Below, one piece after another: positions 18,997 to 25,931 of a DNA stretch of 64,000 bases. The position numbers and the translations under genes were made by a program. Source of the DNA: an uncultured Gammaproteobacteria bacterium (GTDB lineage Bacteria; Pseudomonadota; Gammaproteobacteria; JAIEPX01); the NCBI GenBank assembly GCA_964567285.1, contig CAZMLO010000005.1:55866-119865 (forward strand), written 5' to 3'. The notes beneath the pieces were generated by a model that saw only the letters and a program-made list of their open reading frames with translations, was not told the DNA's origin and did not search any database. Position 1 is the stretch's first letter. Each line of letters begins with the position of its first letter.

Positions 18997-21168
18997 ATGT
19001 CTAAGCGATTTCGTAAAAAGGACCCCTTTGCCGAAAGGGAAGCACAGAAGTATGAGCGGCCCATCGCGAGTCGAGAGCTGATTATGGCCTTTTTGGAAGA
19101 GATAGGAAAACCCGCTTCCATCAAAGAAATTATTGCGGCGCTTAATATCAATGAGGAAGAACAGCAGATTGCGCTGAAAAGACGTTTGCGCGCGATGGAA
19201 CGCGACGGGCAGGTGATGCGCACCCGAGGAAAGAAATATGGCTTAGTGGTGCCTATGGAATTAATTCGAGGTCGCGTAATTGGTCGAAAAGATGGTTATG
19301 GTTTTGTGATTCCTGAAGAGGGTGGTGATGATATTTTTCTTTCACCCTATCAAATGCGCGCCGTTTTCCCGGAAGATATCGTTTTGGTGCGAGCAGTGGG
19401 CACGGATCGTCGAGGTCGTCCAGAAGGTACCATTGTAGAAATTCTACAACGCAATACACATCAAATTGTAGGGCGATTATTTCATGAAGAGGGTGTGGAT
19501 TTTGTGGTGCCAGAAGGCAAAAATATTAATCAGGATATTTTAATTCCCGAATCGCGTCATCCCAAAGCAAAGCCTGGTCATTACGTTGTAGTTTCTATTA
19601 CATCTCAGCCTACTCAGCGTCGACAGCCCGTTGGAGAAATTATTGAAGTGTTGGGAGATCGGCGAGTGGCCGGCATGGAAACCGAAGTAGCCATTCGCTC
19701 ACACGGATTACGTTTTCTGTGGTCTAAAGAAATTGATCAAGAAGTGAAAAAAATACCCGCTGTGGTGCTTCCTGAAGAATGCGGTGGTCAGCGAAAAGAT
19801 TTGCGCTCACTACCTTTTGTCACCATTGATGGTGTCGATGCCAAAGATTTTGATGATGCAGTTTATTGTGAGCCTCGGGAGAGTGGCGGGTGGATTTTAT
19901 ATGTGGCTATTGCGGATGTGAGCCACTATGTCAAAGTCAATTCTGCTTTGGATAAAGAGGCTTATTTAAGAGGTAATTCCGTTTATTTCCCGAGTAGTGT
20001 TTTACCGATGCTGCCAGAAGCCTTATCCAATGAAATTTGTTCTTTAAAGCCCAAAGTGGATCGTTTAGTGATGGTCTGCCAGATGCGCATTAGTAAAGAG
20101 GGACAACTCGAGCGTTATCAATTTTATGAAGGAGTGATTTATTCCCATGCAAGGCTAACTTATGCAGAAGTGGCATGCATGTTGGAAAATCCAAAAACCA
20201 ATCAACATGCCCTCTTAAAACATCTGCAAGATTTGCACGCCTTGTATAAAAGACTCTATAAACAAAGAACAATTCGAGGTGCATTAAATTTCGAAACCAC
20301 CGAAACGCGTATTATTTTTGATGAGCACGATAAAATCCGAAAAATCATACCGGTCGAACGCAATGATGCTCACAAAATTATTGAAGAATGTATGTTGATT
20401 GCGAATGTTGCAACTGCGCGATTTTTGCAACAGCATCGGATGCCGGTTTTGTATCGAGTGCACGAGGGACCCACAAATGAAAGGCTGGAACGATTGCACG
20501 ATTTTTTACGCGGAGTCGGTTTGCGACTCACCGGCGGCGATTCGCCAACTTCTCAAGATTATGCGAAATTATTAGAGCGTATTGAAGGTCGAAAGGATGC
20601 AGGCCTTATTCAAACGGTATTGTTGCGTTCTTTAGCACAGGCTATTTATACCCCAAGTAATAAAGGACATTTTGGCTTGGCCTATGATGCCTACTGTCAT
20701 TTTACATCTCCCATCAGACGTTATCCGGATTTATTAGTCCATCGGGCCATCCGACATGTATTATCCGAACAAAAAGCCGATAAATTTTATATTGGCTACG
20801 AACAAATCGCCGATTATGGTTTGCATTGTTCAAAAACAGAACGCAGCGCTGATTTGGCAACACGTGACGTAGTTGATTGGTTGAAATGCGATTACATGCT
20901 AGAAAAAGTGGGCAATAAATACGAAGGAATTATTGTCGATATCACCAGTTTCGGCGCCTTCGTAGAACTAAAGTCGGTTTATGTCCAAGGCCTGGTTCAT
21001 ATCACGGCGCTAGAAAATGACTACTATTCCTACGATGCCCCTCATCACCGCTTAGTCGGCCAACGCTCCGGCCGCCAATACCGTCTCGGCGACCCAATAT
21101 TTGTCCAAGTCGCCAGAGTAGATGTTGATGAGCGTCAAATAGATTTTGTTTTAGCAAAAAAGCAATAA
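18997..21168 (+). CDS. rnr: Ribonuclease R (VacB)
   Basis: 723 aa; RNB catalytic motif HFGLAYDAYCHFTSPIRRYPDL; cold-shock and S1 domains; lacks the basic C-terminal tail of E. coli RNase R. Confidence 0.9.
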   Translation: MSKRFRKKDPFAEREAQKYERPIASRELIMAFLEEIGKPASIKEIIAALNINEEEQQIALKRRLRAMERDGQVMRTRGKKYGLVVPMELIRGRVIGRKDGYGFVIPEEGGDDIFLSPYQMRAVFPEDIVLVRAVGTDRRGRPEGTIVEILQRNTHQIVGRLFHEEGVDFVVPEGKNINQDILIPESRHPKAKPGHYVVVSITSQPTQRRQPVGEIIEVLGDRRVAGMETEVAIRSHGLRFLWSKEIDQEVKKIPAVVLPEECGGQRKDLRSLPFVTIDGVDAKDFDDAVYCEPRESGGWILYVAIADVSHYVKVNSALDKEAYLRGNSVYFPSSVLPMLPEALSNEICSLKPKVDRLVMVCQMRISKEGQLERYQFYEGVIYSHARLTYAEVACMLENPKTNQHALLKHLQDLHALYKRLYKQRTIRGALNFETTETRIIFDEHDKIRKIIPVERNDAHKIIEECMLIANVATARFLQQHRMPVLYRVHEGPTNERLERLHDFLRGVGLRLTGGDSPTSQDYAKLLERIEGRKDAGLIQTVLLRSLAQAIYTPSNKGHFGLAYDAYCHFTSPIRRYPDLLVHRAIRHVLSEQKADKFYIGYEQIADYGLHCSKTERSADLATRDVVDWLKCDYMLEKVGNKYEGIIVDITSFGAFVELKSVYVQGLVHITALENDYYSYDAPHHRLVGQRSGRQYRLGDPIFVQVARVDVDERQIDFVLAKKQ
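20926..21168 (+). repeat. Direct repeat copy 1 (functional rnr 3' end; candidate attL with 68-bp identical core at 21088-21155)
   Basis: About 80% identical over the first 160 bp and 100% over the last 68 bp to 25692-25931. Confidence 0.8.
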
Positions 21169-24100
21169 AAAAATGATCAATCTGGCATAGTTAACGCTGA
21201 AATCATGAGCCCTCACTTGAATGAGGAAATGGATAGATATGTTGTAGTTTCAAGGCTTGTTTTGGTTTACACTCATTTTTATCGGGACGCCGGTTGGGCA
21301 CAAGTACTCTCTCGAAGTGAATCGAGTTATTAACTAAGGGAAATGCCGTGAAAAAATCAAAAATGCAGCTGCATATAGAAGATATTTTTGCTCGTAAGGC
21401 AAAGTGTAGTGATAACGATACTTCTTTGGCTGATGTCCTTGAGCGAGATATAGCAACCTCATTTGCTGGAGGGAATAAATTTATCTATGAGCTACTACAA
21501 AATGCAGATGATGCGGGTAAAAATAGCAATGTCGAAGTTTTGTTCAAGTTGTTCGAATTCGCTGGGGATAACTACCTTTTATTCTCCCATACTGGCGGTG
21601 GGTTTGAAGAGGGTGATGTCAATAAAATCACTTCCTATGCTAACCAGCGTGTAGAAGAAAAGACTATTGATCCAAATAAAATTGGTTATAAGGGTATCGG
21701 ATTTAAGGCGATATTTACTATCGCGCGTTCGGTGGTGATTTTTTCTAAGGGATATCAATTCCGATTTGATAGTGAATATGAAAAGTGGAGAGAGTCTGGT
21801 AAAGGGGAAGCTTATCCTTGGCAAATTATACCCATTTGGACTGAAGTTAATGAGTTGCCTGAGCCAGTAAGAGTGAGTATGACTAATAATATCAATGTCA
21901 ATTTCTTAGTCAAAATAAAGCCAAAAAATAATATTAAGTCTGCGATGGAATTTCTCCAAAATAATACTAGGATTTTGCTTTTTTTAAGACGTGTCCGAAA
22001 ATTGACGATTGCATTTTCAGAGAAATCTCAGACAAAAATTGAATCCCGGCATCGTCCTGAGGGACAATGTGACATCTTGTTAGATGGTAAACCTTATCGT
22101 AGTTGGTTGATAAAATCCTATAACCTTAAAATACCTCCTCAAATTTCCGAGATTTTGTCAGATATGAGTTCTCATGCCTGTCCAGAAAGGTTGAAAAAAG
22201 CAGATTCAGTGACAATTACCTTCGCAGGGCTTCTTGAGAAAGGTCAGTTGGTGCATTCTGCAAATCTCGCTGTATATTGTTATCTACCCACACAAGTGGA
22301 TTGTGGCTTGCCTTTTGTGATAAATGGGGATTTTCTTCTTGATCCAGCTAGAGCCTATTTGGCAGATAACAAATGGAATGAATTTTTAATGGGCAGCTTC
22401 GCACAAAAGCAATTTGAATGGCTAGCTGAATTAAGTTCTTCCGATAACTACCGGTTACAGGTGTTAAATGTATTGAGCCATAATGCACTTACATCCCTTT
22501 CACCGGGGATTTCTGCAAGTTTTCGCAAAGAGTATGATAAGGCCTCAAAATCCATTGCATTTATACCAGGCGATGTTGCTCAAAACCCTATACTTTTATC
22601 CAAAGCTTTAATTGATGAAACCAACTTTTATACAGTTTTTCCTGAACTGACGCCCCCTAATACCTCTAAACGTCTTGTACATCCCCAATTGGAAAATCTC
22701 AAGATACTACACAAAATAGGGGTAGAGAAAATATCGTTTAAAGACTTGGTGAAATCTATAGAGATACATGCAAATGAGAATAAGAATCCTGAATTTCAAA
22801 TACGATTAATCAAATTTATTTGGCAGCATGAGAAGAAATTTGATGCATCCGCTTTTAAAGCCAAGAAGTTTTTATTATCTCAGGATGGAACCGTATTGGA
22901 GCCTTCACAACTCTATTTTCCTTCTCAGGGTTCAGTTGCAGAGTTTTCCGGATACAAGGGATTAAAATTTTTACATAATAGAATCATTAGTGCCTTTGCA
23001 GAAGACAAGAGAATATTACAATGGCTAAAGGATTTAGGTGTCAATAACTCTAGTCCTTTACAGATCTTACGTGGGTATGTTTTCGATTTAATTAAAAAAA
23101 ATGAGATAACTCAAAATAATGTGGTCGAGCTAACCCGATTTGCAATGCACGTGGCTCGCGATAATAAGGTTACAACAGCTGATTGGGAGATGCTCTCTTG
23201 CATGCCTATACTGACTGAAAGTGGATTATTGCAAAAACCCTTCGACCTTTATTTGCCTGACCTTTTACGACCATTGATCCCGTTACAAGAGGTTATGCAG
23301 AATAAGTCAATCTACGTCTCAAGAGCATATTATTCAGATATACACGCTGGAGTTCGTGATTATGAAATGCAGTCTTGGCAGCAGTATTTTATTAAGGTTG
23401 GAGTACATGCTGATATCCGCTTTGTTTCAGAAGAAGTCAGTATAGAAAAAGGGGATCAGCAGTTGGCATTTTTTCTTAAATATAGGACCTTCTTGAAAAC
23501 TACGGGTAAAACATCGAGTACAATCAAACCGTATCATAGAATACTACATTTAGTATATGCACCTTTGATGAAACATCTAACTACCAACCCTTCGTTTGCA
23601 AAAATATTTGTACAGCGATTACTGGAGCAGTGGCGTACCATAAGCTCAGGCTACCAATCTTGTTATCGTGATGGTAATTCACAGGGTAAAGACTTAAATG
23701 TCAGCTATCTGCAGTTTGTTTTTCAGACTGAGGCCTGTTTTCCGGGGTTTGATGGGAAATTGTATAAGACAACTGACTTATATGATAGGTCTTTTGAAGC
23801 ATTATCTGAATATGATAGATCCCTGGTCACGACGGATAAGGATTTGGACCTAACACCGCCTCAAATCGAATTTTTCAAGATTAAAAATCAATTGTCGTTT
23901 GATCAATGCGTCAACTTACTGAAGCGGTTTAAAGATGAGATAGAGTTAATATGTTTCGTAATCGTATGGCGTCAGTTGCTACAAATGGAAAGCGACTTAA
24001 GTGATGATCAGAGAACAAAATTATTAAGCCTAAATATTCTATTGCCTAATTCAAATCATAGGCTGTGTCCACGTGATCAAATTGCCTGTTTTGCGGTACC

Positions 24101-25853: not shown

Positions 25854-25931
25854 GGCGACCCAATATTTGTCCAAGTCGCCAGAGTAGATGTTGATGAGCG
25901 TCAAATAGATTTTGTTTTAGCCAAAAAATAA
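25692..25931 (+). pseudogene. Displaced/duplicated rnr 3' end fragment (candidate attR); frameshifted remnant
   Basis: Encodes GIIVDITSFGAFVELNPVCV*...HITALENDYYSYDAPHYRLVGQGSGRQYRLGDPIFVQVARVDVDERQIDFVLAKK, near-identical to the RNase R S1-domain C-terminus but with an internal stop/frameshift; begins directly after the stop codon of the giant gene. Confidence 0.8.

Follow-up and report, generated by a model that had tools for sequence, protein, structure and literature searches.

A Tiamat-type candidate defence gene behind rnr and the displaced rnr end that follows it in an uncultured gammaproteobacterium

The window analyzed here is a 64,000-nt stretch of housekeeping DNA from an uncultured gammaproteobacterium (contig CAZMLO010000005.1, positions 55,866 to 119,865), in which a giant gene, tmtA, is located directly behind an intact rnr (RNase R gene) and is followed immediately by a second, displaced copy of the rnr end. 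The product of tmtA resembles the anti-phage protein of the Tiamat system. According to our best reading, tmtA came from a relative and was placed behind rnr by an exchange in the last ~70 nt of that gene, which left the displaced gene end on the far side. The structure is a genuine recombination scar, and there is no evidence of a dedicated integrase as its maker. Its parts are the following:

18997 to 21168, + strand: rnr (RNase R), 723 aa, intact; the Pfam domains HTH_12, OB_RNB, CSD2, RNB and S1 are all found.
20926 to 21087, + strand: arm of copy 1, S1-domain codons of the functional rnr; 80.9% identical to 25692-25853, with mostly synonymous differences.
21088 to 21155, + strand: identical 68-nt block in copy 1, codons GDPIFVQVARVDVDERQIDFVL + GC; 100% identical to 25854-25921.
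21156 to 21347, + strand: functional rnr end (..AKKQ, stop at 21166-21168) and the 179-nt spacer before tmtA; unrelated to the sequence after copy 2.
21348 to 25691, + strand: tmtA, 1447 aa from the GTG at 21348 (1442 aa from the ATG at 21363), assigned by PADLOC profile and domains.
25692 to 25853, + strand: arm of copy 2, the displaced rnr fragment, whose first base is the next after the tmtA stop; contiguous with tmtA in an independent unitig.
25854 to 25921, + strand: identical 68-nt block in copy 2, compared codon by codon with copy 1.
25922 to 25945, + strand: tail of copy 2 (..AKK, stop at 25929-25931) and a 14-nt spacer to the vapC stop, delimited by comparison of the copies.

The last ~240 nt of rnr (20926-21165) are present again at 25692-25931, with a start-to-start spacing of 4766 nt, and copy 1 corresponds to the final 243 nt of the gene. 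A repeat search of the 64-kb window returned one 238-nt direct repeat (20924-21161 / 25690-25927, 87% identical) and no other long one of this type, and blastn aligned the two rnr ends with 86.6% identity over 238 nt (E-value = 1e-79). An earlier note, made from the sequence alone, had described this recurrence directly after the stop of the giant gene, together with an identical core of 68 bp, and both descriptions hold, the latter codon by codon. Differences between the copies reappear on the 3′ side of the block (GCA/GCC, AAG/AAA, CAA/TAA), and past the stop codons no relatedness is left. The rnr genes of the closest relatives also end in AxK-stop, as the tail of copy 2 does. Copy 2 shares its reading frame with tmtA and bears an in-frame stop (CAA>TAA, 25752-25754) and zero indels; of the decay by frameshift or stop that had been proposed, only the stop can be retained. 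This stop lies within a cluster of four substitutions in 11 nt (25746-25757: TAT GTC CAA GGC to TGT GTG TAA TGC), which looks like a single clustered mutational event, not like evenly spread decay. At the joint itself, the tmtA stop overlaps a 7-nt match to rnr, AAGGAAT (25689-25695), which may represent the microhomology of an illegitimate joining.

In the 179-nt spacer before tmtA no promoter-like or terminator-like site was called, and the sequence 21156-21347 was absent from all fetched loci except a Logan unitig of the same organism. This unitig (run SRR28640814, 4758 nt), which stems from an independent assembly, equals positions 21126-25883 of the window with one mismatch. Its ends lie 30 nt inside each core copy, as expected of a k=31 de Bruijn graph branching at a common 68-mer (k inferred from the 30-nt overlaps). 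The unitig confirms that the 68-mer occurs in two contexts and that the joint between the tmtA stop and the rnr fragment is real.

The divergence of the two arms carries the history of the locus. They differ at 31 of 162 positions (80.9% identity), with 8, 1 and 22 differences at the first, second and third codon positions, respectively, in agreement with the roughly 80% identity and largely synonymous differences first noticed. By the Nei-Gojobori method, synonymous divergence (dS) is 0.97 and nonsynonymous divergence (dN) 0.079 (dN/dS = 0.08). Since dN/dS is this low at a dS of about 1, the two arms spent nearly all of their divergence as functional rnr ends, each in a lineage of its own. 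The alignment that the earlier note had proposed as a check was thus decisive on one point: a local tandem duplication followed by decay is excluded as the origin, as 22 of the 31 differences fall at third codon positions and dN/dS is 0.08. Arm-to-arm identity is 81%, while either arm is 70-77% identical to any relative, which points to a related bacterium as the source. Third positions are saturated along rnr against the relatives, and a mosaic scan was therefore uninformative.

Against this background the identical block stands out. A run of 68 identical bases at the divergence of the arms has a probability of about 5e-7, and the longest identical run inside the arms is 20 nt. Nucleotide conservation as the cause of the identity was ruled out, because the five relatives that could be compared show ordinary synonymous variation across the same 68 nt. 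These data support the view that the block is a mark of recombination. The whole structure equals a 4766-nt unit (rnr 3′ fragment - spacer - tmtA) inserted by one crossover or, equivalently, two alternative alleles of the type "rnr-end + cargo" placed side by side.

The unit carries tmtA as its only gene, full-length at 21348-25691, which agrees with the single giant gene that had been predicted for the interior. Its product matches the PADLOC TmtA model PDLC03972 end to end (E-value = 2.2e-190, residues 7-1435 on profile positions 4-1289 of 1302), and seven additional TmtA models match it as well. The N-terminus contains the sacsin ATP-binding domain of NCBIfam (NF047352, 64.2 bits against a cut-off of 50), with Pfam SACS slightly below its cut-off (31.9 against 32.8 bits), and the C-terminus contains NOV_C/DUF3883 (PF13020, residues 1355-1426, 47.7 bits against a cut-off of 22.1). 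Across 10 homologues, E48, N52, D54, D55, G116 and G118 of the head and D1369, E1382 and K1384 of the tail are invariant. Judging from these domains, the protein probably combines a GHKL-type ATPase head with a PD-(D/E)xK-like tail. Beyond the weak sacsin match, no solved structure of a TmtA relative was found. The protein ends in ..GYRVKF and all close homologues end in ..GY(K/R)(V/I)xF-stop; its C-terminus is thus the native end of the family and the gene is complete, with the rnr fragment starting at the very next base.

The Tiamat system consists of a single gene whose defence function has been validated. The product of tmtA shares with it the end-to-end profile match, the sacsin-like head, the DUF3883/NOV_C tail, the E-N-DD, G-x-G and D..E-x-K residues and the single-gene organization, and from this likeness we infer an anti-phage activity of the Tiamat type. 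It differs in its distance, as the nearest protein among 5.8 billion is at most 61% identical, and in being known here from the sequence of an uncultured gammaproteobacterium. Tiamat is also listed among defence systems in PMC12629846.

Homologues of TmtA at 61, 47 and 45% identity are lone genes in three unrelated housekeeping neighbourhoods, namely a gap between a PQQ dehydrogenase and an MFS transporter, a site beside the ATP synthase operon and a site within the batA/batB operon. Neither integrases nor flanking repeats were found around these three, and no conserved leader was found upstream of the gene among the homologue loci compared. Solitary homologues of this kind suggest that the subfamily moves as a lone gene, and the scar in the rnr end is unique to the window among the TmtA loci compared. 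Searches for TmtA relatives on plasmids and in viral contigs gave remote partial matches only. As separate observations, the 45% homologue splits a batA/batB operon together with a 485-aa ORFan (L089, 8892-16980), and the 61% homologue has an EVE-domain gene directly upstream (L086, 9314-9772).

The RNase R of the window is 80-88% identical to that of nine uncultured relatives; its best named relatives are Coxiella, with an identity of about 60%, and a Legionella record, with 62% across the end of the gene. Five of the uncultured relatives, L081, L083, L084, L090 and L091 (RNase R identity 80-87%), could be placed on contigs. After rnr, L081 has queC and then the same block from the TPR-methyltransferase gene to PBP2 as the window; L084, L091 and L090 have a mutually homologous unknown protein of 556-849 aa, with or without queC; and L083 has three ORFans and a NACHT-WD40 protein in a rearranged context. 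None of the five has tmtA, vapBC or a second rnr end after rnr, and a second rnr end is also missing downstream of rnr in all of 80 more distant gammaproteobacterial loci. With other genes following rnr in each of the five, tmtA was evidently inserted into an interval whose content keeps changing within this lineage, and the earlier claim of foreign DNA directly behind an intact rnr is borne out. The empty site that had been predicted in relatives, with rnr followed directly by vapBC, was not found among the five; the RNase R cluster has a single member, with no conspecific genome. Exact matches to the RNase R, TmtA (GTG start) and VapC of the window are not on record, and a scan of genome contigs returned only relatives at about 60% identity.

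The interval recalls the hotspots where defence genes and other cargo accumulate, as its contents differ in six related genomes and include a NACHT-WD40 protein in one and TmtA here. It differs from them in that most of the alternative occupants are ORFans without a match to a defence model, three of them homologous; this is gene flux, not proven repeated integration. Two details of the relatives may be added. In L083 (the 86% relative), the three ORFans and the 1544-aa NACHT-WD40 gene occupy 12227-19513, and the purA-hflC-hflK block is inverted onto this side. In L084 (2141-2277) and L091 (4772-4908), the final ~137 nt of rnr are overlapped by called genes of 556 and 567 aa that run in the opposite direction, which may be due to an over-long gene call or to a genuine antisense overlap.

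Concerning the route of entry, we tentatively favour a Campbell-type single reciprocal crossover between the resident rnr and DNA of a relative, whatever the enzyme, and put its chances just short of even. The incoming 4.77-kb unit, from a related bacterium, would have consisted of tmtA, the 179 nt leading up to it and a 3′ piece of rnr, and would have behaved as a circle (or tandem unit) with the order rnr 3′ fragment - spacer - tmtA. Its internal joint, from the tmtA stop to position -243 of rnr, would have been made earlier by illegitimate joining; TmtA being complete to its native stop, with copy 2 beginning at the next base, fits such a joint at the gene end. The unit would then have entered the chromosome by one reciprocal crossover in the final ~70 nt of rnr, and the product would have been a complete, chimeric rnr, followed by tmtA and by a displaced, decaying rnr end. 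The 68-nt block would be the exchange region or a conversion tract, either identical beforehand or homogenized by heteroduplex repair or later gene conversion, and selection for phage resistance would have fixed the rare event.

What we observe at the locus agrees with this on several counts. The insert is flanked by two copies of a homology segment, of which the insert-borne one comes from a homologous gene, as in Campbell-type integration. Given that the longest run of identity in the arms is 20 nt and that the window contains an intact mutL, a homology-dependent exchange would be confined to the block, as general knowledge of RecA and mismatch repair leads one to expect. A site-specific recombinase is no more likely to have acted here than homologous recombination of the RecA type on the identical block. 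The unitig graph is compatible with a circular or tandem intermediate and does not show one; the circle, the direction of transfer and the enzyme are what we infer from the product.

Campbell-type integration, and homology-facilitated illegitimate recombination in naturally transformable bacteria, are known mostly from laboratory observations. The window has in common with them a homology segment duplicated around the insert, with one in-frame homologous joint and one illegitimate joint at a gene end. It differs from the laboratory cases in being natural, in its homology of only 81% outside the 68-nt block and in that no intermediate has been seen.

Several points weigh against the single crossover. 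One crossover alone does not give 68 nt of identity flanked by divergence, and an extra assumption (prior identity, heteroduplex repair or later conversion) is needed. Homologous recombination is inefficient between sequences that are only 81% identical. Neither a circular form nor a donor genome nor an empty site was found in the collections searched. The structure occurs a single time, and the other TmtA loci have no flanking repeats. Finally, the arm and core of copy 1 fit native codon usage poorly, with a drop that starts at the duplication, which suits better a one-sided entry by homologous and illegitimate recombination.

Such a one-sided entry is a possibility that we take seriously and consider unlikely on balance. 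Linear DNA of a relative, ending in ..rnr-spacer-tmtA and received, e.g., by transformation, would have recombined homologously on the left, inside rnr, and illegitimately on the right, where the tmtA stop would have been joined to the resident rnr at -243. Copy 1 would then be imported and copy 2 resident, and a later conversion would have made the 68-nt identity. A mirror image of this route, with tmtA resident and the segment from the rnr fragment to vapBC imported, is possible as well.

Composition bears most directly on this alternative. Codon fit was referred to native 54-codon windows (mean 0.007, standard deviation 0.073). The arm of copy 1 has a codon fit of -0.127 and a GC content at third codon positions (GC3) of 0.556, within the top 2% of native windows, where the relatives' GC3 over the same rnr segment is 0.30-0.39; the arm of copy 2 has -0.137 and 0.481, and the 68-nt core -0.229 and 0.261. 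Both codon fit and GC3 of rnr shift at about 20860-20941, where the duplication begins. The poor fit of the copy-1 arm means that the functional rnr end may itself be imported, and it weakens the view that copy 1 belongs to the host and copy 2 to an element. The one-sided route also agrees with a joint located exactly at the tmtA stop, with at most the short AAGGAAT in common with rnr, with the likewise poor codon fit of vapC (-0.098, second worst among 43 open reading frames, ORFs), yhhQ (-0.083) and tgt (-0.066), and with the remodelling of the interval after rnr in every relative. However, a separate conversion event is required for the identical block, the compositional signal is weak (tails of about 2-4%, after several looks) and copy 2 is equally atypical. 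At the 20 synonymously differing codons, moreover, a log-likelihood ratio of 0.68 between the copies expresses no preference. Composition cannot tell which copy is native.

The earlier note had described an AT-rich interior and had proposed to compare GC and codon usage of 21348-25691 with the window. The total GC of tmtA is indeed lower (0.386 against 0.433), but its GC3 of 0.336 falls within the native range of 0.34-0.45; the compositional contrast is modest, and at GC3 the sign of foreign origin is weak. A native-like GC3 is consistent with a donor of similar composition.

The interpretation first put forward was a site-specific integrative element, that is, a remnant or a cassette mobilized in trans, with the 68-nt core at the rnr 3′ end as attachment site and with an integrase lost or located elsewhere. 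We regard this as rather improbable. Its anatomy is familiar, with foreign DNA between identical direct repeats (68 nt, 21088-21155 = 25854-25921) at the 3′ end of a housekeeping gene that is restored, and with a small, self-contained unit of 4766 nt. SCC targets rlmH, and ICESt1/3 and the integrase-less CIMEs sit at fda; integrase-less derivatives thus exist in other systems (CIMEs at fda, pseudo-SCC at rlmH). With these elements and with SGI1 the window shares an insert at a gene 3′ end, an intact gene, identical direct repeats and a displaced end on the far side. It differs from SGI1, SCC and ICESt1/3 in having no recombinase, no recurrence of the site that could be found, a 162-nt diverged repeat of the target gene and one cargo gene only. 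That a gene end can be such a target is documented for SGI1, which integrates at the 3′ end of trmE (PMC8409611). As single-stranded DNA, the core forms a 6-bp stem with a 15-nt loop and folds somewhat better than shuffled sequences (z from -1.8 to -3.6; -3.6 for copy 1 and -2.3 for copy 2), which is not diagnostic.

Beyond the anatomy, the site-specific reading is not supported by positive evidence. No Pfam domain of an integrase, recombinase or transposase was detected in the scanned ORFs of at least 120 aa of the 64 kb (a set that excludes the rlmH/rsfS ORFs and five ORFs near the 3′ end, at 60138-63946), and within this scope the statement that no integrase remains was correct. The only mobility-type match in the window is an orphan TraI_2-like gene, 22 kb from the insert. 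By our understanding, an attP arm that had evolved as such should bear no likeness to its target, but the arm here is 162 nt of recently functional rnr, 81% identical to the resident gene and with a dN/dS of 0.08; the copy-2 arm abutting the tmtA stop looks like a captured homology segment. Site-specific exchange would also leave 68 nt of identity beside a dS of about 1 unexplained. The earlier note had proposed to look for the core next to recombinase genes in other genomes. The core gave no match in viral and metagenome contigs, either as an exact 38-mer or as a degenerate 68-mer, within the limited coverage of these collections (the degenerate 68-mer missed a JGI relative expected to match). 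Second rnr ends are also absent from the 80 gammaproteobacterial loci and the five close relatives, and none of the literature matches listed has the rnr end as an island site. Among candidates that were set aside, phage records matching the rnr end are host flanks of prophages integrated at ssrA (e.g., PV425441.1, with rnr-smpB-ssrA and then the integrase), not attP sites, and matches in plasmid collections are full rnr genes on large replicons. In summary, the insertion between two rnr ends and the block as a mark of recombination survive from the first interpretation, while a site-specific mechanism gains no support, the scanned ORFs having no recombinase domain and the arm being target-gene sequence; given the limited coverage of the collections, which contain no conspecific genome, it keeps a small probability.

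A bolder extension of the Campbell-type route is that tmtA and its captured piece of a housekeeping 3′ end form a minimal, integrase-free mobile defence cassette, which would be released through its 68-nt repeats as a circle of 4.77 kb and would enter related genomes again by recombination with their rnr. We consider this doubtful; if it were true, gene-end homology would serve as a portable address by which immunity genes spread among relatives. Least probable is an assembly ambiguity, in which an uninterrupted rnr-core-vapBC and a separate 4766-nt circle or tandem array were threaded together through the 68-mer: a k=31-type graph cannot separate these states, and the Logan unitig does end 30 nt inside each core, but ordinary reads longer than 68 nt span the block and assemblers with larger k resolve it (the source contig measures 145,693 nt), the unit has no replication gene, and only the present state would be altered, not the origin of the joint between tmtA and the rnr fragment.

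The surroundings of the insert are ordinary chromosomal genes, in the order hflK - hflC - purA - tRNA-Leu - ORFan - rnr, then tmtA, the rnr fragment and vapCB, which is convergent with rnr. Beyond vapCB follow yhhQ-tgt and then TPR-methyltransferase - SLT - def - rodA - PBP2. One further feature row belongs here:

25946 to 26594, - strand: vapC (PIN domain, 25946-26383) and vapB (FitA-like RHH, 26349-26594), assigned by Pfam, with the NCBIfam VapC model below cut-off; convergent with rnr.

An Rfam scan of 18.3-29 kb returned tRNA-Leu only above threshold, and no remnants of queC or of the relatives' unknown gene were found in the window. The variable interval after rnr also contains, at 26976-28743, an operon of yhhQ (which encodes a queuosine-precursor transporter, TIGR00697) and tgt (a match to TIGR00430 that exceeds its equivalog cut-off); L081, L090 and L091 have queC there instead, and this may represent a switch between queuosine synthesis and salvage at one locus. 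A second, weak Vut_1/YhhQ-like paralogue (27.8 bits, slightly above cut-off) is located at 8081-8815, right before miaA.

Other observations concern the rest of the window. A palindromic element of ~80 nt, GGTGTCAGGTCTCCCGTTGGC...GCTAACGGGAGACCTGACACC, which resembles repetitive extragenic palindromic (REP) sequences or miniature inverted-repeat transposable elements (MITEs), is present in two copies that are 79% alike (2840-2920 and 8104-8183) and flank the plsY-amiC-mutL-isochorismatase segment. Inverted repeats were located at 39583-39717 beside holA (41-nt arms, 53-nt spacer) and at 5151-5258 between amiC and mutL (52-nt arms, 4-nt spacer), and an inverted 64-nt pair lies 47 kb apart (1331-1394 / 48367-48430). 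The TraI_2-type gene mentioned above (43106-44515), which encodes a relaxase/helicase-like protein of 469 aa, stands alone between leuS and lnt, and further genes for transfer are absent from its vicinity. A second PIN-domain (VapC-like) gene at 51098-51511 adjoins ORFs without Pfam match (52032-53171), and two ORFs without Pfam match (357 and 729 aa) are located between hflX and hflK (11395-14684), the first with a codon fit of -0.088.

The insertion belongs to known kinds both of cargo and of insertion mode, and is an ordinary type of event that left a tidy scar. Standing alone, the case contributes above all a divergent TmtA and, in a poorly sampled gammaproteobacterial lineage, a variable locus after rnr. 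It is also a clean natural example of what appears to be a single-gene immune system entering a chromosome without a visible mobility gene, and its scar can be dated, as it preserves an exchange tract of 68 nt and two gene ends that differ by a dS of about 1, while an essential-type gene was left intact. Recurrence of the same design elsewhere would point to a homology-addressed spread of defence genes among related bacteria.

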